A stretch of 64,000 nt of DNA from NCBI GenBank assembly GCA_046331405.1, contig JAXLQX010000003.1, positions 307,202-371,201 of the forward strand, written 5' to 3'. The stretch comes from Thermoanaerobaculia bacterium. Lineage in GTDB: Bacteria; Acidobacteriota; Thermoanaerobaculia; Multivoradales; SZUA-115. The translations under genes and the position numbers were made by a program. The notes under the pieces are model-generated. The model searched no databases, had not been told where the DNA came from, and saw only the letters and a list, made by a program, of their open reading frames with translations. Below are positions 7,598 to 56,472 of the stretch, piece after piece. Each line of letters starts with the position of its first letter. Position 1 is the first letter of the stretch.

Positions 7598-8734
7598 GTG
7601 CCCTACGCCATCGGCATCGATGCCCGCAAGCTCTTCGATTTCGGCATCGGCACCTACATCAAGCACCTGATCGAGGCCCTGGCGGCCATCGACGCCGAGA
7701 ACCGCTACTTCCTGCTCACCACGGGCGAAGGCCGGGACGCCCTCTCCCACCTGCCCGAGAACTTCAAGCCCGTGGTGGAGCGCTCCCAGGTGTACTCCCT
7801 CTCCGAGCTCCTGCGGGTGTCCCAGAAGCTACGCCGGCTGGGCGTGGACCTGTACCACTCCACCCACTACGTGCTGCCCGCCTTCCTGCCCTGCCCGGCC
7901 GTCGCCACCATCCACGACATCATCCACTTGCTCTATCCGGACTTCCTGCCCAACCGCCTCGCCCTGCTCTACGCCCAGCGCATGATGCGCAGCACCCTCT
8001 CCCGGGCCGAGCGCATCCTCACCGTGTCCCGCAACACCAAGAGCGACCTCATGGAGTTCTTCGAGGTCGACCCGACGAAGATCGAAGTGGTCTACAACGG
8101 CGTCGACGATCGCTTCCGCGGCCGCCTCGACCCGGCCGAGATCGACCAGCGCCTGGCCCGTCTGGGGGTTTCCCGCCCGTACCTCCTCTTCGTGGGCAAC
8201 CCCAAGCCGCACAAGAACTTGAACACCGTGATCCAGGCCTACGCCCACGCCCTCTCCGTGGCCCCGTTCGAAGAGCCGCTGGTCTGCGTGGGGGCCCGCG
8301 AGGGAGCGGAGTTCAAGCTGCGCCAGCGCGCGGAGCATCTGGGCATCGGCGATCGCCTCAAGCTGGTGGGCTACGTGGACGACGCCGACCTGCCCGCCCT
8401 CTACCAGGGGGCCACCCTCTTCCTCTACCCCACTCTCTACGAAGGCTTCGGACTGCCGGTGGCCGAGGCCATGGCCTCCGGCACCGCGGTCGTCACCTCC
8501 AACACCTCCGCCCTGCGCGAGATCGCCGAAGGCTACGCCTACCTGGTGGACCCCCACGACGTGGCCCGCATGGGCGAGGCCATCGCCGTCTGCGTGTCGG
8601 ACCCCGAGCGCCGCGCCGGCCTGGCCGAGCTCGGCCTGCGGCGGGCCGGTGAGTTTCGCTGGCAGAAGGCGGCCGAGGAGACCCTGGCGGTGTACCGCCG
8701 CGCCCTCGAGGGCCGCAAAGCGAGCAGGCCATGA
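7598..8734 (+). CDS. glycosyltransferase family 4
   Basis: GT-B fold with the EGFGLPVAEAMASGTAVVTS motif. GTG start at 7598 follows GAGGAAA. The N-terminal 60 codons of the track ORF are low-complexity read-through. Confidence 0.8.
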   Translation: MPYAIGIDARKLFDFGIGTYIKHLIEALAAIDAENRYFLLTTGEGRDALSHLPENFKPVVERSQVYSLSELLRVSQKLRRLGVDLYHSTHYVLPAFLPCPAVATIHDIIHLLYPDFLPNRLALLYAQRMMRSTLSRAERILTVSRNTKSDLMEFFEVDPTKIEVVYNGVDDRFRGRLDPAEIDQRLARLGVSRPYLLFVGNPKPHKNLNTVIQAYAHALSVAPFEEPLVCVGAREGAEFKLRQRAEHLGIGDRLKLVGYVDDADLPALYQGATLFLYPTLYEGFGLPVAEAMASGTAVVTSNTSALREIAEGYAYLVDPHDVARMGEAIAVCVSDPERRAGLAELGLRRAGEFRWQKAAEETLAVYRRALEGRKASRP

Positions 8735-9891
8735 GCGAGCCGGCCGCCCCCTGGGCCCCCCGGTCCACCGCCCTGGTGCACGACTGGCTGAACGGCATGC
8801 GCGGCGGCGAGAAAGTGCTCGAGGCGATCGCCGAGCTCTTCCCGGGGGCGCCGATCTTCACCCTGCTCCATCGCCCGGGAAGCCTCTCCCCCGAACTTGC
8901 CGCCCACCCCATCCACCCGAGTTTCCTGCAGCGGGCTCCCGGCATCCAGCGCTGGTACCGCCACTACCTGCCGCTCTTCCCGGCGGCCATCGAGAGCCTG
9001 GACCTCGGCGCCTACCCGCTGGTGATCAGCTCCAGCCATTGCGTGGCCAAGGGAGTGATCCCGCCGCCCGGCTCCTTCCACCTCTGCTACTGCCACACCC
9101 CCATGCGCTACGCCTGGGACCAGGAAGCGGTGTACTTCCCCAGACGCAAGGGGCTGGTGGCGAGGCTCCGCGGCCTCGCGCTCTCCTCGCTGCGCAGCTG
9201 GGACGTGGCCTCGGCATCGCGCGTAGACCTCTTCGTGGCCAACTCCCGGTTCGTGGCGGAGCGCATCCGCCGCTACTACCGGCGCGACGCCCTGGTGCTC
9301 GCGCCGCCGGTGGCGACCGAGTTCTACACCCCGCTCGAAGAGGGCCGGGAGCCCTCCCGCAGCTACGCCCTGGTGGTGGCCGCCCTCGCCCCTTACAAGC
9401 GGGTGGACGAGGCGATCGCCGCCTGCGTCCGGCTGGGGCTGCCGTTGACCATCGTGGGCACCGGTCCGGAAGAGGCGCGCCTGCGCAGCGGTGCCGGCCC
9501 CTCGGTGCGCTTCCTCGGCCGGGTGCCGGATGCCGAGCTGCGCGAGCTCTACCGCCACGCCGCCTGCCTGCTGCAGCCGGGGGTGGAGGACTTCGGCATC
9601 GCGCCTGTGGAGGCCCTGGCCTGCGGCACGCCGGTGGTGGCCCTCGGCCGGGGCGGCGTTCTTGATATCGTGGCGGACGGCCGCCACGGCGTGCTCTACC
9701 CCGGAGAGGGCTCGGTTCCCGCGCTGGCGGCGGCGATTGACAAGGGCCGGCAAATTCGCTTCAATGCCAATGACCTCCGTGCCCATGCCGAATCCTTCTC
9801 GAAGATGAGCTTTCTTGAGCGCTTTGGCCGGATTCTCGAGCAGCATCTGCCCGCGGCCGAGGGGGCCCGGGCCGGGAGGGTGAGCCCTTGA
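8731..9891 (+). CDS. glycosyltransferase family 4
   Basis: HDWLNGMRGGEKVLE N-terminus and C-terminal GT1/GT4 motifs. ATGA overlap with the upstream GT4 gene. Confidence 0.8.
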   Translation: MSEPAAPWAPRSTALVHDWLNGMRGGEKVLEAIAELFPGAPIFTLLHRPGSLSPELAAHPIHPSFLQRAPGIQRWYRHYLPLFPAAIESLDLGAYPLVISSSHCVAKGVIPPPGSFHLCYCHTPMRYAWDQEAVYFPRRKGLVARLRGLALSSLRSWDVASASRVDLFVANSRFVAERIRRYYRRDALVLAPPVATEFYTPLEEGREPSRSYALVVAALAPYKRVDEAIAACVRLGLPLTIVGTGPEEARLRSGAGPSVRFLGRVPDAELRELYRHAACLLQPGVEDFGIAPVEALACGTPVVALGRGGVLDIVADGRHGVLYPGEGSVPALAAAIDKGRQIRFNANDLRAHAESFSKMSFLERFGRILEQHLPAAEGARAGRVSP

Positions 9892-11336
9892 TCGCCCGTC
9901 GCCACCGCTGGAGTGCCGGTGCCTACGTCGCAGCCGACCTCGCCGCCGTCTGCCTGGCCTACTTCACCGCCTGGTTCCTCCGCTTCGAGGCGGTGATCGT
10001 TCCCTTCACCAAGAACCCGCCGGAAGAGTTCACCCGCTACATCCAGCTGGCGCCGGTGGTGCTGCTCCTGTGGCCCACGGTGTTCTACTTCCACGGCCTC
10101 TACCAGTTCAAGCCCGGGCGCAGCCGGGTGGACGAAGCCCTGACCATCCTGATGGCCACCGTGCTCGCCACCCTGATCCTCTCCGGCCTGATGAACTGGG
10201 TGCGCCTCGAAGGCGTGATGCGGCCGGACGGCACCTTCGAGTACTTCACCTTCAGCCGCGTCTTCCAGGCCCTATTCGCCCTGCTCTCACTGCCGGTGGT
10301 GGTGCTGGCGAGAACCGTGGTCTCGGCCCTGCTGCGCCGCCGCCGGGCCCGGGGCGCCGGGCTGCAGCGCATCCTGGTGGCCGGCGCCGGGCCGCTCGGC
10401 GAAGAGGTGGTGCACAAGATCAGCCACCATCCCGAGCTCGGCTATAAGGTGGTGGGCTTCCTCGACGACGACCCTGCCAAGCTGGGCCAGGACATCGCCG
10501 GCGTGCCGGTGGTGGCCCAGCTTCGCCAGGCGAGCGAGGTGCTCGAGCGCGAGCAGATCGACCAGATCTTCGTCAGCCTGCCTCTCGACGCCCACAAGAA
10601 GATGCTGCGCCTGCTGCGCGAAGTGGGCCAGGAGTGCGTGGAGGTGAAGCTGGTCCCGGACGTGCTCCAGTACGCCACCCTCAAGGCCACCCTGGAAGAC
10701 CTCGACGGCACCCCGGTGATCAACCTCTCCGAAGTGCCGCTCCAGGGCTGGAACACCCTGGTGAAGCGGGCGATGGACATGGCCCTCTCGGCGATTCTAA
10801 TCCTCGCCCTGCTGCCCTTCCTGCCGATCGTGGCCCTGGCCATCTGGCTCGAGGACCGCGGCCCGATCTTCTACCGCCAGGAGCGCATGGGCCTGGACGG
10901 CCGGCCGTTCATGATCCTCAAATTCCGCTCCATGAGGGTGAACGCCGAGGCCGCCACCGGGCCGGTCTGGGCGGTGGCGGAGGACCCCCGCTGCACTCGG
11001 GTGGGAGCCCTGCTACGCAAGTGGTCCCTGGACGAGTTTCCCCAGCTGTGGAACGTGCTCCTGGGCGATATGTCGTTGATCGGCCCCCGGCCCGAACGCC
11101 CGGCCTTCGTGTCCGAGTTCAAGCACAAGATTCCGCAGTACATGCTGCGCCATCGAGTGAAGGCAGGCATGACCGGCTGGGCCCAGGTGCACGGCTGGCG
11201 GGGCAACACCTCGGTGAAGAAGCGGCTGGAGTACGACCTCTACTACATCGAGAACTGGTCGGTGGGGCTGGATCTCAAGATCCTGTGGATGACCGCCATG
11301 ACCTTCGCCTTCGACCTGCGCCAGAACGCTTACTGA
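9888..11336 (+). CDS. undecaprenyl-phosphate sugar phosphotransferase (WbaP/EpsE-like polyprenyl glycosylphosphotransferase)
   Basis: N-terminal TM helices, central CoA-binding-like region and C-terminal bacterial sugar transferase domain (DRGPIFYRQERMG...KFRSM...DEFPQLWNVLLGDMSLIGPRP). TTGA overlap with the preceding GT gene. Confidence 0.85.
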   Translation: MIARRHRWSAGAYVAADLAAVCLAYFTAWFLRFEAVIVPFTKNPPEEFTRYIQLAPVVLLLWPTVFYFHGLYQFKPGRSRVDEALTILMATVLATLILSGLMNWVRLEGVMRPDGTFEYFTFSRVFQALFALLSLPVVVLARTVVSALLRRRRARGAGLQRILVAGAGPLGEEVVHKISHHPELGYKVVGFLDDDPAKLGQDIAGVPVVAQLRQASEVLEREQIDQIFVSLPLDAHKKMLRLLREVGQECVEVKLVPDVLQYATLKATLEDLDGTPVINLSEVPLQGWNTLVKRAMDMALSAILILALLPFLPIVALAIWLEDRGPIFYRQERMGLDGRPFMILKFRSMRVNAEAATGPVWAVAEDPRCTRVGALLRKWSLDEFPQLWNVLLGDMSLIGPRPERPAFVSEFKHKIPQYMLRHRVKAGMTGWAQVHGWRGNTSVKKRLEYDLYYIENWSVGLDLKILWMTAMTFAFDLRQNAY

Positions 11337-11354
11337 GCCCGCCTAGCCCGGGAC

Positions 11355-11696
11355 CTAGCCGCGGAAGATGAAATACACCGCCCCCAGCAGGCAGAGGGCG
11401 GCCCAGAGGAAATTCAGCTTCACCGGCTGCCGCATGTAGAGCAGCGCGAACGGCACGAAGACCGAGAGGGTGATCACCTCCTGGAGGATCTTCAGCTGGT
11501 CGAGCCGCAGCTCGCCGTAAGAAAGCCGGTTGGCCGGCACCTGGAGCAGATACTCGAAGAGGGCGATGCCCCAGCTGGCGAGGGCGGCGATGTACCAGGG
11601 GCGATGCTGCAGGTTGCGCAGATGGGCGTACCAGGCGAAGGTCATGAAGACGTTGGAGAGAGCGAGCAGCAGGACCGTTCGCAGGAGGGTGGGCAT
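11355..11696 (-). CDS. small DMT-superfamily membrane protein (DUF486-like)
   Basis: 113 aa with 4 predicted TM helices. Resembles DMT family half-transporters. Confidence 0.55.
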   Translation of the reverse strand: MPTLLRTVLLLALSNVFMTFAWYAHLRNLQHRPWYIAALASWGIALFEYLLQVPANRLSYGELRLDQLKILQEVITLSVFVPFALLYMRQPVKLNFLWAALCLLGAVYFIFRG

Positions 11697-11789
11697 CGGC
11701 GGGCCGGAATCCTAGCAGCCTGGCTCTGCTAGAGTCGCCGCCGGCTCGACCCGCGACGCTGGATGAATCTCACAAGGAGGCAGGCAACG

Positions 11790-12311
11790 ATGACACGCAC
11801 TGTGGCAATGGGCTTGGTGTTGAGCGCTTTCCTCGCGCCGGCGGCGTTCGCTGCCGATGCGCCGGGCGGCAAAGTACAGGCCGAGTTGGTGAGCAGCCTC
11901 GAGGAGGCCGTGAACAAGGTGGTGCAGCTCGCCGAGGCGATCCCGGCCGAGAAGTTCGCCTGGCGCCCGGCTCCCGGCGTGCGCTCGGTGATGGAGGTGG
12001 TGGGCCACGTCAGCGGCGGCAACTACCTGTTCAGCAAGCTGCTGGGCAACCCCAACCCGGCCGCCGGCACCGACCCGGAGAAAGAGACCGACAAGGCCAA
12101 GGCGATCGCCGCTCTCAAGGCCTCGCTCGAACATCTGAAGAAAACCGAGCTGGCCGTTTCGGATGCCGACCTCGACAAAACCGCCGACTTCTTCGGCCGC
12201 CCGGCCACCCAGCGCTCCCTGATGGTGCGCGCCGCCGGCCACGCCCACGAGCACCTCGGCCAGCTGATCGCCTACGCCCGCAGCAACGGCGTCAAGCCGC
12301 CCTGGAGCTAG
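11790..12311 (+). CDS. DinB/YfiT-like (DinB_2) family protein with signal peptide
   Basis: His-rich motifs (VGHVSGG, AAGHAHEHLGQLIAY) typical of the DinB_2 four-helix bundle. AGGAGG lies 9 nt upstream of ATG 11790; the track ORF starts at 11763. Confidence 0.55.
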   Translation: MTRTVAMGLVLSAFLAPAAFAADAPGGKVQAELVSSLEEAVNKVVQLAEAIPAEKFAWRPAPGVRSVMEVVGHVSGGNYLFSKLLGNPNPAAGTDPEKETDKAKAIAALKASLEHLKKTELAVSDADLDKTADFFGRPATQRSLMVRAAGHAHEHLGQLIAYARSNGVKPPWS

Positions 12312-12326
12312 AACCTGCAGCCCCCA

Positions 12327-12351
12327 CCCCGGGAGCACCACGTTCCCGGGG
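12327..12351. terminator. bidirectional hairpin between convergent genes (CCCCGGGA-N9-TCCCGGGG)
   Basis: Perfect 8-bp GC-rich inverted repeat in the 51-nt gap between the DinB-like gene (+) and the small secreted protein gene (-). No U tract. Confidence 0.35.
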
Positions 12352-12362
12352 TGCCCCCACCG

Positions 12363-12725
12363 CTACTGCGAAGCGTCCTGGCAGCCGAGCAGGATCTTGT
12401 TGGTGATGGTCCACTTCTCCTTGCCGGCGCAGATGTCCACGTTCGACACCACACACTCGTCACCGTCCTCGTCGATGAGCTTGACGTCGTAGGTATCGCA
12501 AGGGATGTCGGTCAGGGTGAAGGACTCGCCACTGCTGATCACCGCCTCGCCCAGCTGATCCGGGCCCCACTGCTCTTCGTCCGTGCTGGAGAGGTAGAAG
12601 TGGTGGATCTCCCAGTCGCTCTCGTTGACGATTTTGACCGAGGCATTCTTCGCCCAGGCGGCCGAAGAACCCAGCAAACCGAGGACAAGCATCGACAAGA
12701 CAGAGCGCAAGAGCCATTTATTCAT
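12363..12725 (-). CDS. small secreted Cys-containing hypothetical protein
   Basis: Signal peptide MNKWLLRSVLSMLVLGLLGSSAAWA and 4 Cys. Sits in a lower-GC islet with AAT/AAA/TTG codons. GGAGG lies 6 nt upstream of ATG 12725. Confidence 0.5.
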   Translation of the reverse strand: MNKWLLRSVLSMLVLGLLGSSAAWAKNASVKIVNESDWEIHHFYLSSTDEEQWGPDQLGEAVISSGESFTLTDIPCDTYDVKLIDEDGDECVVSNVDICAGKEKWTITNKILLGCQDASQ

Positions 12726-12796
12726 AATATTCCTCCACACTGGAAAGCTAGGATTCTAGCACCCCCCGCCTTTGTGCCCTGGCATAACATCCCACC

Positions 12797-14971
12797 GTGC
12801 CGGCGCAAGAACAGCTGGAAGGAGCGGTGGAACGCATCCTCTTCCTGAACGAGGAGAACGGCTGGAGCGTGGTGAAGCTCGCGCCGGCCGAGGGTGGGGA
12901 AGCGATTACCGTGGTCGGCCACCTGGGAGACGTGCAGCCCGGCGAGAGCCTCGCCCTCTCCGGCCTCTGGCAGGAGGACCGCAAGTTCGGCCGGCAGTTC
13001 AAGGTGGATTCCCACCGCTCGGTCCTGCCTACCCAGGTGGATGCCATCGAGAAGTACCTCGGCTCCGGCCTGATCCCCGGCATCGGCAAGGCCATGGCGC
13101 GCCGCCTCGTAGAGCGCTTCGGCGAGGCCACGCTCGAGGTGATCGACCGCTACTCGGCCCGCCTGCTCGAAGTGCCGGGCATCGGCGCCAAGCGCAGCGC
13201 CGCGATCCGCGAGGCCTGGGTGGAGCAACGCGAGATCCGCGCCGTGATGCTCTTCCTGCAGGGCCACGGCATCGGCACCGCCCATGCCCTGCGCATCTGG
13301 AAGGCCTATGGCAACGCCGCCGTGGCGGTGCTCGAGAGCAACCCCTACCGCCTGGCCGCCGAGATCCACGGCATCGGCTTCAAGACCGCCGACCAGATCG
13401 CCGCCCGTCTGGGCCTGCCCCGAGACGCCCCGGAGCGCGCCGCCGCGGGCCTCCTCTACCTGTTGGCCGAGGCGAGCGAGCAGGGGCATTGCTTCTTGCC
13501 CCGGGCTCAGCTGCTCAGCCGCAGCCAGGAGCTGCTCTCGCTGCCGGCGGCTCCGCTCGAAACGGCCCTCGAGCGCCTGGCCGAGGGCCATCGGGTGAAG
13601 GCCGAGCCGGACGAGGCCGGGGAGGTAGCGATCTATCTGCCCGAGCTCCACCGCGCCGAAACCGGCCTGGCGGAGGATCTCGCGCGGCTGCTGCGGGCGC
13701 CAGGCCGCCCTCTCGAGCTCGACCTCGAAGCCGAACTCGCCTGGTTCGAGGCGCGAGAGCGGATCACCCTCGCGGCGGCCCAGCGGGAGGCCATCAAGAG
13801 GGCTCTGCATGCCCGCGTGCTGGTGGTGACCGGCGGCCCCGGCACCGGCAAGACCACCCTGGTTCGCGGCATCGTGGCCATTCTCGTCCGCCGCGGCCGC
13901 CAGGTGCTGCTCGCCGCGCCGACCGGCCGCGCCGCCCGCCGGCTGGCCGAGGCCACCGGTGCCGAGGCCCGCACGGTGCACCGGCTGCTCGAGTGGAGCC
14001 CTCGCTCCCTGGGCTTCGAGCGCCACCGGGACCGCCCCCTGGAAGCCGACCTGGTGCTGATCGACGAGGCCTCGATGCTCGATGCCCCGCTCGCCGCGGC
14101 GATCGCCGAGGCCCTGCCCGTCGACGCCCAGCTGGTGCTGGTGGGGGATGTCGATCAGCTGCCTTCGGTGGGCCCGGGCAACGTGCTCGCGGACCTGATC
14201 GGCTCCGGGGCGGTGGCGGTGGTGCGGCTCACGGAAGTCTTCCGCCAGGCCCAGCAGAGCCGCATCGTGGTCAACGCCCACCGCATCCGCCAGGGGCAGA
14301 TGCCGGAGCTCGAAGCCCGCGAAGAAGGCTCGGATTTCTTCTTCATCGAGAGGCCGGAGGCCGAGGGCCTGATCGCCACCCTGGGCGAAATGGTGGCCCG
14401 GCGCATCCCGGCCCGCTTCGGCTTCCACCCGCTCGAGGACATCCAGGTGCTCTCGCCGATGAACCGCGGGCCGCTGGGAGTGATCCAGCTCAACCGCCAG
14501 CTGCGCGAGCTGCTCAACCCGGCCGGCAAGGAGCTGGTGCGCAACGGCCGCGTGCTGAGGCTGGGCGACAAGGTGATGCAGGTGCGGAACAACTACGAGC
14601 GGGAGGTCTTCAACGGCGACCTCGGTCGGATCACCGCCCTGGACGAGGAAGAACAAGAGCTCGAGGTGTGCTTCGACGGCCGCCCGCTCCACTACTCCTT
14701 CAAGGACTTGGACGAACTCGCCGCGGCCTACGCCTGCTCGATCCACAAGAGCCAGGGCAGCGAGTACCCCTGCGTGGTGCTGCCGGTGCACAGCCAGCAC
14801 TACGTGATGCTGGAGAGGAACCTCATCTACACCGCCTTGACCCGCGCCCGCCGGCTCGCCGTGCTGATCGGCGAGAAGCGGGCGCTGGGGATCGCGGTGC
14901 GCAACGTGCGCAACCGACGCCGCCACTCGGGGCTCCTGGCCCGGCTCCAGGCCCTGGCCGCCGAGGCCTGA
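12797..14971 (+). CDS. recD2: RecD2-type SF1 ATP-dependent DNA helicase
   Basis: N-terminal HhH region, Walker A VVTGGPGTGKTT, helicase motifs and C-terminal SH3-like domain. About 724 aa, typical of RecD2. Confidence 0.85.
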   Translation: MPAQEQLEGAVERILFLNEENGWSVVKLAPAEGGEAITVVGHLGDVQPGESLALSGLWQEDRKFGRQFKVDSHRSVLPTQVDAIEKYLGSGLIPGIGKAMARRLVERFGEATLEVIDRYSARLLEVPGIGAKRSAAIREAWVEQREIRAVMLFLQGHGIGTAHALRIWKAYGNAAVAVLESNPYRLAAEIHGIGFKTADQIAARLGLPRDAPERAAAGLLYLLAEASEQGHCFLPRAQLLSRSQELLSLPAAPLETALERLAEGHRVKAEPDEAGEVAIYLPELHRAETGLAEDLARLLRAPGRPLELDLEAELAWFEARERITLAAAQREAIKRALHARVLVVTGGPGTGKTTLVRGIVAILVRRGRQVLLAAPTGRAARRLAEATGAEARTVHRLLEWSPRSLGFERHRDRPLEADLVLIDEASMLDAPLAAAIAEALPVDAQLVLVGDVDQLPSVGPGNVLADLIGSGAVAVVRLTEVFRQAQQSRIVVNAHRIRQGQMPELEAREEGSDFFFIERPEAEGLIATLGEMVARRIPARFGFHPLEDIQVLSPMNRGPLGVIQLNRQLRELLNPAGKELVRNGRVLRLGDKVMQVRNNYEREVFNGDLGRITALDEEEQELEVCFDGRPLHYSFKDLDELAAAYACSIHKSQGSEYPCVVLPVHSQHYVMLERNLIYTALTRARRLAVLIGEKRALGIAVRNVRNRRRHSGLLARLQALAAEA

Positions 14972-48773: not shown

Positions 48774-50537
48774 TCATTTCAAGCGGGAGAAGAAGCGACG
48801 AACCTCCCCCTCGGCCGGCCGGGAGAGGAACCGGAAATCCGGCCGATCGGCCACCGGCTCCTGGCTGAAGGCCTTCCACACGAACACACCCTTGAGCCAG
48901 CGCTCGCCCTCGAGGGCCTCGAAAAGAGCGCGATAGGAAGCCGCCTGGTCCGCTTCCGAGAGCTCTCCGCCCTCCTCGAAGGGAGCGGTCCAAGCGGCTT
49001 TGCGGGCGGCGAAGCCGACCTCGGTCAACAGCAGCGGCTTGCCGGCGCGGGTCGCGGCGGCGCCCAGGCGGGCCACCACGGCGCGCGCCCCCTCCCGAAG
49101 CTGCCCGGGGCTCGCCGAGGCTTCCGAGCTCAGCGGGTAGTAGGCGTCGATCCCCATGGCGTCGAGCTCGGCCCAGAACGGCACCGCCTCGAGCCCGCCG
49201 TACCAGTTCGCGGCATAGACCAGCCGCCCCCCGTAGAGGCGCCGCACGTCGGCGATCAGCCGTCGCCAGTCTTCGGTATGGCCGAGCGTACCGTCGAGCT
49301 CGACGCCCAGGCAGAGCATCTCGGCTCCCGCCCAGCCGGCGAGCATCGCGTGGTGCAGCAGGAAACGACGGTAGGACGCCCACCACGCGGCCCAGCTCCC
49401 GGGATCCCCGTACTGGAGCGCACCCGGCCAACTGCCGTGCACCCAGATCTGCGGCTTCCACAGCACCTGCATGCCTCGAGCGTGCGCGCAGCGGCTGGTG
49501 TGGACGCAGCCGATGTCGGTCTCCGCCCAGGGCGAGCCGGTGAAGAAGCGCAGATGCGTCTCGCCGGGGCCTCGCTGGCCGGCGAACGGCATGATCGACA
49601 CCGCGTTCGCCCCGAGCGCCGAAAGTCGGGCCAGGCTCTGGTCTGCCACGGGTGCGTGGTAGCCGCCTTCCACCGAGTTCAACATGGCGAAGCTCACCCC
49701 TCGCCAGGGCGAACCCGACCAGGAACCCGCCGTCGCCCGCGGCGGCTCCCGCCGCTCCGGCCCCCGAGCCTCGCCGAGGCGGGCCAACTCGCGCGCCACG
49801 CGCGCTGGGTCAAGCGGAGCGGCGAGCTTCTCGGCGAGCGTTCGCCCCGGCAGGGCCTCCACCAGCGCCGCCGCCACCGGAGTGGCCACCAGGCCCGAGC
49901 TATCCCCTCGCGGCTCGGAAGCCAGCAGCTCCGAGGCCGCGGGCAGGGCATCCGCCGCCACCAGGTCCGGCACCCAGGCGGAGAACGGCCGGCCGTACCA
50001 GTCCCGGGAAAGCCACAAGGCCGCGCCATCCCGCAGCGGTGGCGGCAGCGAGAGGCCCGCCGGCAGGCGATCCACCAGCAGCCGGGCCAGCGCGAAACGG
50101 TAGCCAGGCAGGTCCTCGGGGTGAACCACCAGCACCAGATCCGCCCCACCCGCGGGACCCGCCACCGCCTCCCCCACCCGGCCGGTCAGCTCGGCCTGGG
50201 CCGTGTAGTCCGCTACCTCTTGGATCGTGATCGAAGTCGGAAGCGCAGCAGGAACCCGCCCCGCCATCTCCACCAGAGCCCGCTCGAGCTCCGCCCGTAG
50301 CGCCTCCCGGCTCGAAACGTCGCCTCCCGGCGCGGGGCGGAGGAGGACTGCCCGAGTGCCTGGTGCCGCCGCGGCGGGCTCAGCCGGTCGCCCCCTCGCG
50401 CCGGAAACCAGCAACCACGCTAGTGGCGCGGCCAGGCCGGCCAGGACCAAGAGCCGGCCCTTCGGGCCAGAACCTCCACCCGCAGCCACTTCTAACTCCC
50501 CCGGAGGAAGGCGAGGAGCGATCTCGCGCTGGGGCAC
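48774..50537 (-). CDS. putative secreted glycoside hydrolase (TIM-barrel C-terminal domain, N-terminal about 330 aa unknown)
   Basis: C-terminal region (YYPLSSEAS...LLLTEVGFAA...WLKGVFVWKAF) resembles GH5/GH26/GH113-type hydrolases. The likely true start is TTG 50450, giving signal peptide MVLAGLAAPLAWLLVSGA. Confidence 0.45.
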   Translation of the reverse strand: MPQREIAPRLPPGELEVAAGGGSGPKGRLLVLAGLAAPLAWLLVSGARGRPAEPAAAAPGTRAVLLRPAPGGDVSSREALRAELERALVEMAGRVPAALPTSITIQEVADYTAQAELTGRVGEAVAGPAGGADLVLVVHPEDLPGYRFALARLLVDRLPAGLSLPPPLRDGAALWLSRDWYGRPFSAWVPDLVAADALPAASELLASEPRGDSSGLVATPVAAALVEALPGRTLAEKLAAPLDPARVARELARLGEARGPERREPPRATAGSWSGSPWRGVSFAMLNSVEGGYHAPVADQSLARLSALGANAVSIMPFAGQRGPGETHLRFFTGSPWAETDIGCVHTSRCAHARGMQVLWKPQIWVHGSWPGALQYGDPGSWAAWWASYRRFLLHHAMLAGWAGAEMLCLGVELDGTLGHTEDWRRLIADVRRLYGGRLVYAANWYGGLEAVPFWAELDAMGIDAYYPLSSEASASPGQLREGARAVVARLGAAATRAGKPLLLTEVGFAARKAAWTAPFEEGGELSEADQAASYRALFEALEGERWLKGVFVWKAFSQEPVADRPDFRFLSRPAEGEVRRFFSRLK

Positions 50538-51091
50538 CGAGCCTCGACCTCGGCAGGATTCAGGCGCTCGAGGAGCTCGAAGGAAGTTCTGCCTTTCCCA
50601 TACTTTCGATCGCCGCAGGCGGCAGTAGCCCGGTCCAAGGCGTCCAGGACTTCGCTCTTAGCCACTGCTTCGAGGTCCGGCCAATCGGGAAGGTGGCGCT
50701 CTCGGAGGTCCGCCCCAAAATACGATCGTAGGCAGCCGCGGTCGGCCAGGAACCAGGTCTCCATCACCTGGACCATCAGGTGAAGCTGCTCTTCCTTGCA
50801 GCCGTGAGGTGGAGTCCAGCCATCGTGTTCCTTGAGATGGTGCCAGCGGCTTCGGCCCGGGCGCACCGCCTTCTCGCTGTCGACGAGGAGGGCCGGGGCT
50901 TGCTCCGGGTTGGCCTCCTGCACCGCTCGGGCGAAAAGATCGAAGGCTCGCTCTCGACTACCGCCTCGAACCACTCTCGGCATTCGACCGCCGAGGCCGG
51001 CAGCCTTGAAAAAATGGTTCCAACCGGCACGGAACTCGACGTCCGCGAGCTCTCCCTTGCCGCCGCCTTCGATGTAGAGCTTCACCCTCAC
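50492..51091 (-). CDS. DUF4276 family protein (candidate TOPRIM-like nuclease partner of the upstream ATPase)
   Basis: VKLYIEGGGKGE N-terminus and LLVDSEKAV acidic motif, about 200 aa. GTG 51091 overlaps the ATPase stop (GTGA). The track ORF starts at 51154. Confidence 0.6.
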   Translation of the reverse strand: MRVKLYIEGGGKGELADVEFRAGWNHFFKAAGLGGRMPRVVRGGSRERAFDLFARAVQEANPEQAPALLVDSEKAVRPGRSRWHHLKEHDGWTPPHGCKEEQLHLMVQVMETWFLADRGCLRSYFGADLRERHLPDWPDLEAVAKSEVLDALDRATAACGDRKYGKGRTSFELLERLNPAEVEARCPSARSLLAFLRGS

Positions 51092-52248
51092 CAGCGATTG
51101 CCTCCCACCTCGCCCATGCTCCAGAGCTCGCCTAGGCTGTACTTCTCGAGCCACGTCGTCAGGCGGGTGCTATCGAGCCGTTCAAAACGAGACTGCCCCT
51201 TCTCCTGGCTACAAACCACCACCGAGGAAGAGGACTCCGATAGGGCATCGATCAGCAGACGAGAGTGGGTGGTCACCACCAGCTGGGTCCGTGTGGAGGC
51301 GCCGACGAGAAGCTCAGCGATATAGGGGATTACATCCGGATGGAGGCCGAGCTCCGGCTCTTCGATCGCCACCAGGGGCGGAGGCTCGGGGTGCAGCAGG
51401 ATCGCCAACAGGCAGAGGTAACGCAGGGTGCCGTCGGAGAGTCGAGTCGCCGGGATTTCCCGCCCGCTCGCCTCAGCCAGGAAGAGCAGAACGTTGCCGC
51501 CGTCGATAGTGAGATGAACGTCTTCGATCCCGTCGTAGAGCCGGGCCAGGGACTCCAGCAGCTCGCGCTTGACCCTGGGGCGGATCTTCGACAGCACCAG
51601 GGCCAGATTGTCACCACCGTCGTTCAGCTGGTCGCTCCGGCCATGGGTGCTTTGCTCGCGCCTCAAGGGCGCTCCCGGCCCGAACCACCAATTGCGATAC
51701 AGCCGGATGGCCTCGTAGTGCTCTTGAAGAAAGGCGAGAACTGGATAGCGTTCCGGGTCTCTCACTTGCGAGAGGATGGACTGCTCCGGCTTGACGCTCT
51801 CGCGCTTCAGCCCCCGTTCCTTCTTCGAGAGGTCGTTGAGCACCGGGTGGCCCTGCTGGAACCTGTAGTAGAAGTACGGCTCCGAGTAGCCCGGCTGGGG
51901 ATCGCGATTCTCGATGCGCTCGTCCAGCACTTCGAAGCGCTCGGCGTGCTCGGCTATTTCGAGGTAGTGACGAAGCGACGGCCCTTTGGCCTGCCGCACG
52001 GTGGCTTCCAGGGTCGCGAGGCGCGGCGAGCCCGGGCCTTTCCACAGCCATTCCCGCACGCCCCCCATCTCCTTGACGGGCTGGGGCAGGTGGGTGGGCG
52101 CCGCCTTGAGCAAGGCGAGCACTTCGAGCAGGTTCGACTTGCCCGAGCCGTTAGGGCCGATCAAGACGTTGAGAGGCTGGAGCTCGAGGTCGATGCCTTC
52201 TGGTCCGAACGAGAGCAGGCCACTTACCCTCAAGCGCTCGATCAGCAT
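51088..52248 (-). CDS. ABC-type ATPase of the AAA_21/SMC-like family (OLD/RloA/AriA-like)
   Basis: Walker A GPNGSGKSN, signature-like LSDGTLRYLCLL, Walker B PPLVAIEEPELGLHP, H-loop LVVTTHS. Start at ATG 52248 (MLIERL...) with AAGGGG upstream. GC about 60% versus about 70% in flanks. Confidence 0.75.
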   Translation of the reverse strand: MLIERLRVSGLLSFGPEGIDLELQPLNVLIGPNGSGKSNLLEVLALLKAAPTHLPQPVKEMGGVREWLWKGPGSPRLATLEATVRQAKGPSLRHYLEIAEHAERFEVLDERIENRDPQPGYSEPYFYYRFQQGHPVLNDLSKKERGLKRESVKPEQSILSQVRDPERYPVLAFLQEHYEAIRLYRNWWFGPGAPLRREQSTHGRSDQLNDGGDNLALVLSKIRPRVKRELLESLARLYDGIEDVHLTIDGGNVLLFLAEASGREIPATRLSDGTLRYLCLLAILLHPEPPPLVAIEEPELGLHPDVIPYIAELLVGASTRTQLVVTTHSRLLIDALSESSSSVVVCSQEKGQSRFERLDSTRLTTWLEKYSLGELWSMGEVGGNRW

Positions 52249-52336
52249 CGGATTACCCCTTCTGTAGGCGAGCCTCGAGCCGCGCAACGGCTCGACAATT
52301 CCCTAGAGTCGGCTCCCAGTGTAGCCCGGCCCCCGC

Positions 52337-53628
52337 CTACAGCACCACTCGCCGGCCGGCGAGGTAGGTGGCTACGGCGGCTCCGCGCAGCTTCCAGCCG
52401 GCGAAGGGGGTGTTGCGGGACTTGCTCTGGAACCGGCTGGGGTCCACCACCAGCTCGCGCTCGAGGTCGATCAGGGTGAGGTCCGCCATATTGCCGCGGC
52501 GCAGGCTGCCGGCCTCGAGGCCGAGCACGCGGGCCGGGGCCACGGTCAGGGCCTCGATCACCCGGCCGAGGGACACCAGGCCGGGGCGCACCAGGCGGTC
52601 CAGCACCAGCGGCAGCGTGGTCTCCAGGCCCACGATGCCGAACGGGGCCTGGGTGTAGTCGCGGTCCTTCTCGTCGGCGTGGTGCGGCGCATGGTCGCTC
52701 GCGATCACCTCGATCGAGCCGTCGGCGAGGCCGGCCACCAGGGCCTCGCGGTCTTGCTCGGAGCGCAGCGGCGGCTTCATCTTGGTGTTCGTGGAGATGC
52801 CGCTCTTGGCCACCTCTTCGTCGGTCAACAGCAGATGGTGGGCCGAGACTTCGCAACTCGCCGCCACGCCTCGAGCTCGCGCGGCGCGCACTAGCTCGAG
52901 CCCGCGGGCGGTCGAGGTGTGCTGCAGGTGGTAGCGGCCGCCGGTCTCCTCGGCGAGGATCAGGTCCCGGGCGATCAGCACGTCCTCGGCCACGCCGGGG
53001 ATGCCGGGCAGGCCGAGGCGGGTGGACCACATTCCCTCGTGCATCACCCCGTTGCCGGTCAGGGCCAGGTCCTCGGCGTGCTGCATCAGCGGTCGGCCGA
53101 AGTGGCGGGCGTAGAGCAAGGCCCGGCGCATCAGATCCGAGTTCGCCACCGGCAGGCCGTCGTCCGAGAAAGCAGCGGCTCCCGCCTCCACGAGTTCGCC
53201 GAACTCGCAGAGCTCGGCGCCCTTCTGCCCTTTGGAGACCGCCGCCACCGGATGCACCCGCGCGTAGCCATGGCGCGCGGCCTGGGTAAGGATGTGCTGG
53301 GTCACCGCCCGGTTGTCGTTCACCGGCACGGTGTTGGGCATCGAAGCCACGGCGGTGAAGCCGCCGGCCGCCGCGGCGCGGGTGCCGGTCTCCACGGTCT
53401 CCTTGTACTCCTGGCCGGGCTCGCGCAGGTGGACGTGCAGGTCGATCAGCCCGGGAGCCACCACCAGGCCGGCGGCCTCCACCACTTCCACCTCCGCCCC
53501 CACCGGGATCGACTCCGCTACCTCGGCGACCCGGCCGTCCTCGATCAGAAGATCGCGCCGGCCGTCGATCCCGAGGCTGGGATCGAGCAGGCGGCCGCCA
53601 CGGATCAAGAGCCTGCCTTTCGCGGGAG

Positions 53629-53632
<4 letters not shown>
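52337..53632 (-). CDS. pyrC: dihydroorotase
   Basis: Amidohydrolase HVHLREP motif. ATGA overlap with the pyrB stop. Confidence 0.8.
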
Positions 53633-55298: not shown

Positions 55299-55865
55299 AT
55301 GACCGCGAAAGACCCGAAGACCGAAAGCCTCAAGGCGTCAGGCGCCGCTACCGGCTGGCGCCGCTACCGCCAGGAGCTGACCTTCTTGCTGCTGTTCCTC
55401 GGCCTCCTGGCGGCGAGCTTCACCCTCATCTCGCTCAATTGGGTCAACGACCATCTGATCGAGCCCTTCACCGCCGCCATCGCCCAGGTGAGCGGTGTCA
55501 CGCTCAACCTGCTCGGCCAGAACATCCGGATGCAGGACACCTTGATCCTCGGCCAGCGCTTCTCGGTGAACATCAAGAACGGCTGCAACGGTGTGGAGGC
55601 GATGCTGATCTTCTTCTCGGCCATTCTCGCCTTCCCGGCCTCCTGGCGTTCCAAGCTCGCCGGCCTGGGCATCGGCCTGGTGATCATCCAGTTGGTGAAC
55701 CTCGTCCGCGTGGTGGCGCTGTATTTGACCGGCGCCTACTTCCCGAAGCTCTTCGATGCCTCGCACACGGTGGTCTGGCAGAGCCTGGTGATCCTCGCCG
55801 GCGTGCTGCTGTGGATCTACTGGGCCAATCGCTTCGCCGAGCCGCGCCGCCCGGCCGCCGCCTGA
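55299..55865 (+). CDS. possible short exosortase/archaeosortase-family membrane protein (XrtH-like)
   Basis: 5 TM helices. NGCNGVEAML with a candidate catalytic Cys, plus N..R in a later TM (IQLVNLVRVV). Size matches the short exosortase variants. Confidence 0.4.
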   Translation: MTAKDPKTESLKASGAATGWRRYRQELTFLLLFLGLLAASFTLISLNWVNDHLIEPFTAAIAQVSGVTLNLLGQNIRMQDTLILGQRFSVNIKNGCNGVEAMLIFFSAILAFPASWRSKLAGLGIGLVIIQLVNLVRVVALYLTGAYFPKLFDASHTVVWQSLVILAGVLLWIYWANRFAEPRRPAAA

Positions 55866-55890
55866 GGCCGCCCCGAGGAAGGAGCCCGCC

Positions 55891-56472
55891 GTGGCCGCAA
55901 CCTCCAGCTGGGCCTTCCGTTTCAGCCGCAACGTGCTGCTCTGGCTGGTGCCGTGTTTCCTTTTCTGGAGTGTCCTCACCGGCTTCTACAATCGCTTCCT
56001 GACGGTGAGCGCCCAGAACCTGCTGCATCTGGGCGAGAGCCCCAACGTCACCCAGCTGCTCAAAGAGGACCTGCACTACATCGGCGTCTCCCGCAGCGAC
56101 TTCCCTCCCGGCAAGGGCGTGCTCTACCGGATCCGCGTCACCGACGTCCACTTCCACCTCTACCTGCTGTTCGCCCTCTTCCTGGCCGTGCCGGACGTGC
56201 CTCTGAAGGAACGCCTCTCGGCCCTCGGCTGGGCCTGGCTGGTGGCCGTGTTCTTCGAGATCACGGACCTCTTCCTGTGGGTGAAGTTCGTCTACGCCAC
56301 CCAGCTCGGCAGCTGGAGCGCCGAGCACTACAGCTCCTTCGGCCAGAACTTCTGGGGCCTCGGCAAGCACGTCTTCGACCTGCCCTTGAAACTCGCCTTG
56401 CCCTTCGCTCTCTGGATGGCCTTCTTCTACCGCCGCCTGCCCTTCTTCGCCCAGCGCTCGGCGTCGAGCTGA
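55891..56472 (+). CDS. polytopic membrane protein, possibly exosortase-associated
   Basis: Adjacent on the same strand to the putative exosortase. 5 TM helices, no known motif. Confidence 0.4.
   Translation: MAATSSWAFRFSRNVLLWLVPCFLFWSVLTGFYNRFLTVSAQNLLHLGESPNVTQLLKEDLHYIGVSRSDFPPGKGVLYRIRVTDVHFHLYLLFALFLAVPDVPLKERLSALGWAWLVAVFFEITDLFLWVKFVYATQLGSWSAEHYSSFGQNFWGLGKHVFDLPLKLALPFALWMAFFYRRLPFFAQRSASS

Follow-up and report, generated by a model that had tools for sequence, protein, structure and literature searches.

A two-gene cassette on the minus strand of a 64-kb stretch of DNA from a Thermoanaerobaculia soil bacterium (Acidobacteriota; the whole stretch is called the window here) encodes an ATP-binding cassette (ABC) ATPase and a small DUF4276 protein. 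Judged by its profile matches, the cassette belongs to HEC-01, a candidate system catalogued in PADLOC. We consider it probable that the cassette is a stand-alone, horizontally acquired member of that family acting as a nuclease-based defence module; the mechanism is drawn from analogy with OLD, Gabija and PARIS. An earlier note on this DNA had read the pair as an accessory defence candidate made up of an ABC/AAA_21 ATPase and a Toprim-like DUF4276 nuclease, and each part of that reading that could be checked is supported.

The gene pair and its family

Along the minus strand, pyrR, pyrB and pyrC (stop at 52337) are followed by an 88-bp spacer, an open reading frame (ORF) of 386 aa, a second ORF of 199 aa and a GH113 glycoside hydrolase gene. 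The first ORF (51088..52248, minus strand) has an ATG start and encodes a HEC-01A-type ABC ATPase, an SMC/Rad50-like head without a coiled coil. The longest ORF at this position begins with a TTG at 52287 and would give 399 aa; the ATG start is preferred because the homologues are 386-387 aa long and begin MLI. Walker A (GPNGSGKS, 52135-52158), a signature-like LSDGT (51427-51441), Walker B (IEEPE, 51352-51366) and the H-loop (TTHS, 51262-51273) are all present on the minus strand. The second ORF (50492..51091, minus strand) has a GTG start and encodes a HEC-01B-type DUF4276 protein with an OLD-like Toprim nuclease domain. The ATPase stop overlaps this GTG in the sequence GTGA (51088..51091, minus strand), which implies translational coupling of ATPase and nuclease. 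ORF positions and sequence thus bear out the coordinates, the gene pair and the GTGA joint given in the earlier note, and the motifs that it quoted (GPNGSGKSN, LSDGTLRYL, LVAIEEPELGLHP, TTHS, LYIEGGGKGE and LLVDSEK) were all found.

Pfam assigns the ATPase to AAA_21 (6.1e-34) and its partner to DUF4276 (1.8e-12), both above the gathering scores. A PADLOC check, which the earlier note had suggested, called the pair at full length. In PADLOC-DB the ATPase is HEC-01A (PDLC04177, E 2.9e-156), with residues 1-386 aligned to positions 3-393 of the 393-position profile, and the partner is HEC-01B (PDLC04201, E 7.3e-64), with residues 1-197 aligned to positions 1-197 of 202. Both HEC-01 profiles are therefore matched end to end by genes that are adjacent and co-directional. 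HEC-01 comprises many hidden Markov model (HMM) subfamilies, and the window copy falls in the PDLC04177/PDLC04201 subfamily. Other defence ATPase profiles (AriA, PDC-M07A, mad3, AbiLi and Old) score far below HEC-01A on the ATPase. The partner matches no PADLOC profile other than HEC-01B at E up to 0.01 and only DUF4276 in Pfam; no PHROG or NCBIfam family matches it.

A profile built from the DUF4276 alignment gave no match to PDB sequences even at E 10, so the link to Toprim required fold comparison. The fold is OLD-like. As in Toprim domains, strand 1 is followed by a conserved Glu and strand 3 by an acidic motif of the DxD type, and the acidic residues are conserved family-wide; what had been a guess in the earlier note is thereby confirmed. 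In the close clade the invariant segments are E8-G-G-G after strand 1 (Glu8, 51068-51070, minus strand, as are the following), D71-S72-E73 after strand 3 (50873-50881), M-V-Q-x-M-E111-T-W after strand 4 (Glu111, 50759-50761) and Y164-x-K166-G (Lys166, 50594-50596). Across 72 representatives 34-52% identical to the query, E8, G9, E111 and E141 are invariant, and D71, S72, E73, H85 and K166 are at least 90% conserved. This is the residue pattern that an active metal-dependent Toprim nuclease should show. In the ATPase, the Walker A Lys37, the Walker B pair Glu296-Glu297 and His328 show little or no variation. We also note that the ATPase tail (residues 366-386, window 51088-51153), with the consensus WLxKYSLGxLWSMGExGGNRW, hardly varies among 48 homologues; AlphaFold models it at low confidence, with a predicted local distance difference test score of about 38-54. 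The tail is a candidate docking peptide that would bind the nuclease or another protomer.

An exhaustive HMM search returned 2,245 clusters (at 50% identity) with E≤1e-3, of which 631 had E≤1e-30. Pairing was surveyed at 85 loci from one metagenome scan and contig look-ups, 81 of them with enough upstream sequence to be informative. The ATPase gene lies directly upstream of the DUF4276 gene in all 81, and a start/stop overlap of 4-7 nt occurs in 75/77 homologous loci; the pairing is thus obligate and translationally coupled. The ATPase is 71-76% identical to proteins labelled Thermodesulfobacteriota, Verrucomicrobia, Armatimonadota and Acidobacteria. It is more strongly conserved than the nuclease partner (53-62%), and also more than pyrC among relatives within the class (62-68%).

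The slot between pyrC and GH113

The exact proteins of the window were traced to a Thermoanaerobaculia metagenome-assembled genome, and the identical cassette and arrangement are found in four independent assemblies. Both flanks are native. Upstream is pyrC (dihydroorotase; 52337..53632, minus strand; Pfam Amidohydro_1 and DHOase), the last gene of pyrR-pyrB-pyrC, and downstream is the glycoside hydrolase (48774..50489, minus strand), which Pfam places in GH113 (7.9e-42). These are the flanking genes that the earlier note had named. With the GH113 protein as query, 27 related loci were retrieved from species-representative genomes, 21 of which contain both pyrC and GH113, and in these 21 Thermoanaerobaculia relatives the order pyrR-pyrB-pyrC-slot-GH113-IMPase-M23 is conserved. 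The ATPase/DUF4276 pair is in the slot in none of the 21, in agreement with the accessory status that the earlier note had proposed to examine by comparing this junction. In 20 of the 21 the slot instead holds a gene for a secreted DUF4440 protein some 320 aa long; two DUF4440 repeats were seen in the L008 copy, the one that was scanned. No DUF4440 gene or remnant was found within the whole window, so the cassette sits in the position of a native gene. In a second Thermoanaerobaculia genome, a pair with 62-69% identity is located elsewhere, after an ars operon.

Two relatives depart from the usual arrangement. The slot of L024 lacks the DUF4440 gene and is empty, and L014 (5284-6480) has ORFs of 242 and 154 aa, with no Pfam match, between pyrC and the DUF4440 gene; its pyrC-GH113 gap has a GC fraction of 0.65, its flanks one of 0.69. 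Within this class the slot after pyrC is thus variable.

The foreign DNA amounts to at most the two ORFs and 88 bp. Its upstream limit is the spacer that separates pyrC from the ATPase gene (52249..52336, minus strand), which carries a GAAGGGG ribosome-binding site. On the other side, the likely GTG start of GH113 at 50489 lies 2 nt past the DUF4276 stop (an alternative GTG is at 50537), its ribosome-binding site GGGGGAG is located within the 3′ end of the DUF4276 gene, and the relatives align with the window from 50360 downstream. A scan of the spacer gave no sigma-70-like promoter and no intrinsic terminator above shuffled expectation; the cassette is probably transcribed by read-through from the pyr operon. 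The spacer also contains an imperfect hairpin (52262-52308; minus-strand core GTCGAGCCG-ttgcg-CGGCTCGAG) that lacks a following T-run and may be a 3′ structure of pyrC. The 88-bp sequence is not conserved at other loci. Among stand-alone copies no shared DNA was found upstream or downstream of the cassette, and one subclade embedded among hsd genes has a common leader of about 45 bp.

No integrase or transposase was called in the flanks of same-organism contigs, which together cover about 5 kb on each side, as the earlier note had also observed, and a search for direct or inverted repeats as insertion scars gave short chance-level matches only. Divergent from pyrR (window 55299-56472) are an exosortase gene of the EpsH family and an XrtH-associated gene, identified from an identical Pfam-annotated contig (L002).

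The cassette has a GC content of 64.1% against 70.0% for the window, and just 0.26% of same-size windows are equally low. GC at third codon positions is 0.81 and 0.74 in the pair and 0.85-0.92 in the neighbouring genes. The lower GC described in the earlier note is thus real, the value of about 60% is not. Its claim that the cassette uses AAA, TTA and AAT codons rare elsewhere was overstated: A/T-ending codons are enriched about 2-3 fold overall, and the in-frame counts are three AAA, five AAT and no TTA. Across the family, cassettes lie below host-flank GC by about 3.6 points on average (34/40 loci, Wilcoxon p 4e-6), and cassette GC follows host GC from locus to locus (r 0.91). Because the deficit is family-wide and tracks the host, low GC alone is no proof of recent arrival, and we rejected it as such. 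Elsewhere in the window only 11031-12900 has a GC content as low as that of the cassette; it holds the 3′ end of a sugar-phosphate transferase gene, an ORF for a 182-aa secreted DinB-like protein (11763-12311) and the first part of a gene for a RecD-like helicase.

Homologue contexts and related systems

Genomic context was counted at 67 distinct loci with at least 300 bp of downstream sequence. At 14 of them the N-terminus of a type I HsdR follows on the same strand within 250 bp of the DUF4276 stop, at nearly all of these by 9-40 bp. Wherever the flanks suffice the order is hsdM-hsdS-pair-hsdR, and L119 displays it with Pfam-annotated genes. The clade closest to the window copy is often embedded in this way. 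Other homologues lie in defence islands. The dense island of L035 (1509-15010) comprises two ATPase-DUF4276 pairs, a Gabija-like pair (OLD-Toprim ATPase and UvrD helicase), HipA and a long HsdR-like protein bearing a Peptidase_S24 domain; another contains ImmA/IrrE, Phd antitoxins and an OLD-like Toprim protein. Homologues thus frequently reside within type I restriction-modification (R-M) operons or defence islands, which supports the defence reading of the earlier note.

At two loci, L119 (about 8609-8730) and L121 (about 8606-8745), just a 40-46-aa HsdR N-terminal remnant is left, 9-12 bp after the DUF4276 stop; in L119 an intact hsdR follows 3.5 kb further on, past YhcG and RhuM genes. This suggests either later insertions or that the pair moved together with a 5′ stub of hsdR. 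No hsdR remnant was found in the window. A separate observation concerns L033 (16082-19125), where a two-gene insertion encoding a 729-aa AAA_21 protein and a 285-aa protein sits between CoA-transferase and AMP-binding genes. It is missing from the otherwise syntenic L034 and is another ABC-ATPase cassette placed flush between metabolic genes.

The pair can be set against several described systems. HEC-01 (Hma-embedded candidate 01) was described by Payne et al. as an ABC ATPase with a TOPRIM protein in Hma systems, the TOPRIM sharing the metal site of BpOLD (bioRxiv 10.1101/2024.01.29.577857). The window pair has the same arrangement, an ABC ATPase gene and then one for a small Toprim (DUF4276) protein whose fold likewise resembles BpOLD, but it stands alone between pyrC and GH113 and not within an Hma/MADS, BREX or R-M system. 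DUF4276 has been placed in the Toprim superfamily and equated with Mad4 in the Menshen study (PMC12065111), and MADS3-4 and AbiL are named among ABC-ATPase plus TOPRIM systems in the PARIS paper in Nature (PMC11464382). Mad3-Mad4 of Pseudomonas aeruginosa MADS is indeed a homologous pair of AAA_21-type ATPase and DUF4276 Toprim protein. Membership of MADS was rejected, as the NCBIfam model MAD3 (NF047739) reaches 89.5 bits where 420 is the cut-off, and the match is confined to the C-terminal half. No mad1, mad2 or mad5-8 gene lies near the pair, its neighbours being pyrRBC, GH113, IMPase and M23 peptidase genes.

The earlier note had matched the pair to OLD, PARIS, AbiL/RloAB and Septu. It is an ATPase-Toprim defence candidate of that sort and a member of none of these proper. 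PARIS combines the ABC ATPase AriA with the DUF4435 Toprim protein AriB. Here the ATPase is about 100-170 aa shorter, the partner is DUF4276 and not DUF4435 with no match to the AriB HMM, and, in contrast to PARIS, the pair did not turn up on phages, satellites or plasmids. OLD and GajA carry their ATPase and Toprim domains fused in one chain, whereas the window has two genes; the match to the PADLOC Old profile is weak and partial (4.3e-14), and OLD membership (P2 Old, BpOLD, TsOLD) was rejected. The second acidic position of the DxD motif also differs from OLD/GajA, being Glu (D-S-E) in the window protein, and in contrast to Gabija the pair has no UvrD partner. For AbiL/RloAB, the AbiLi match is partial (4.4e-21) and the partner matches neither AbiLii nor RloB. 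For Septu, PtuA reaches 25.9 bits where the cut-off is 500, and the partner is a Toprim, not an HNH, protein. A resemblance to PrrC and RloAB lies in position: many close homologues occupy the site between hsdS and hsdR within type I R-M operons, where prrC of EcoprrI and the rlo genes are also found. The effector differs, being a Toprim nuclease and not the PrrC anticodon nuclease domain, and the window copy has no hsd genes. Taken together, the cassette belongs to HEC-01 and, by analogy, probably works like OLD- or PARIS-type systems.

Function and rival explanations

From the analogy with OLD, Gabija and PARIS we infer how such a module could work in this organism. In a complex of the two proteins, the ATPase would keep the metal-dependent Toprim nuclease switched off. 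Binding or hydrolysis of ATP, coupled to the sensing of a phage or foreign-DNA cue, would license the nuclease to cut nucleic acid, either DNA as do OLD and GajA or tRNA as does AriB. Cutting would stop the invader or the infected cell. In support of a defensive phenotype, a HEC-01 from a cold seep gave E. coli B protection from one or more of T4, T5 and T7 (PMC12881386), and in MADS deletion of mad3 or mad4 reduces defence, both being needed for the full effect (10.1101/2023.03.30.534895).

Several observations weigh against defence as the function. The HEC-01 of Payne et al. gave E. coli no protection against any phage (bioRxiv 10.1101/2024.01.29.577857). Stand-alone copies lie among housekeeping or metabolic genes, as at dprA-topA/argS and at CoA-transferase/DUF2817 (the latter conserved in three genomes); with pyrC/GH113 and GDH, such plain settings make up about half of the ten distinct annotated contexts. 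The window contains no hsd gene, and no other obvious defence gene is beside the pair. Searches of IMG/VR viral contigs, PLSDB plasmids and GenBank phages yielded no homologue, in contrast to PARIS and P2 Old. Finally, the conservation of the ATPase at 71-76% identity across phyla is unusually high for a defence sensor.

The pair could instead be a selfish addiction module of the toxin-antitoxin (TA) kind, in which the ATPase restrains a Toprim toxin, loss is harmful and there is no net protection against phage. Such a module would suit a compact, overlapping two-gene unit placed flush between housekeeping genes without mobility genes, and it would accommodate the HEC-01 that failed to protect. 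TA modules are frequent neighbours at other loci, and Pfam labels AAA_21 a "putative AbiEii toxin, Type IV TA system". Against this, about a fifth of the loci are co-directional within type I R-M operons, a hallmark of defence genes, another HEC-01 did protect E. coli B, and mad3 and mad4 contribute to MADS defence. Many abortive-infection systems are moreover formally TA-like, so that this explanation overlaps with the one we prefer; as a distinct alternative we regard it as unlikely. We think it very unlikely that the cassette is a housekeeping-type DNA repair or maintenance pair acquired as an extra function. RecF-RecR, like the window pair, joins an ABC ATPase to a Toprim protein, and SbcC-SbcD/Rad50-Mre11 would be a further model, but the ATPase is not a RecF equivalog accompanied by a RecR partner, and membership of RecF-RecR was rejected.

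It is, in our judgement, slightly less probable again that the cassette is a decayed or silent passenger, the remnant of a restriction-linked unit, parted from its R-M genes and without further function in this genome. The contrast between a window without hsd genes and a closest clade that is often hsd-embedded would fit this, as would the lack of a promoter of the cassette's own in the scan. However, both ORFs are intact and of full length with every family-invariant residue present, the cassette is identical in four independent assemblies, and many other stand-alone copies are equally intact. The good ribosome-binding site in the 88-bp spacer and the absence of a terminator after pyrC also argue against silence.

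A more specific proposal, which we put forward tentatively and think rather improbable, is that the highly conserved clade of 387-aa ATPases and 198-200-aa Toprim proteins is a guardian of restriction that arose between hsdS and hsdR in type I R-M operons, and that escaped copies such as the one in the window work alone. Like PrrC and PARIS, it would detect anti-restriction factors of phages or a disabled HsdR, and then fire the Toprim nuclease. If so, the conservation across phyla, higher in the ATPase than in the nuclease, would stem from recognising a trigger that is itself conserved, and the flush replacement of a native gene without mobility genes would point to a minimal two-ORF unit that spreads by plain recombination.

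Whether or not that proposal holds, our preferred reading remains that of a stand-alone HEC-01 defence module. It opens no new category, since the Toprim assignment of DUF4276 and the ATPase-Toprim pairing are already published. For experiments on HEC-01, handles are offered by the absence from phages and plasmids, the frequent embedding between hsdS and hsdR, the obligate coupled pairing, the catalytic residues and the invariant ATPase tail. With this cassette, a candidate defence family that is widespread gains a clean stand-alone example from Thermoanaerobaculia (Acidobacteriota).

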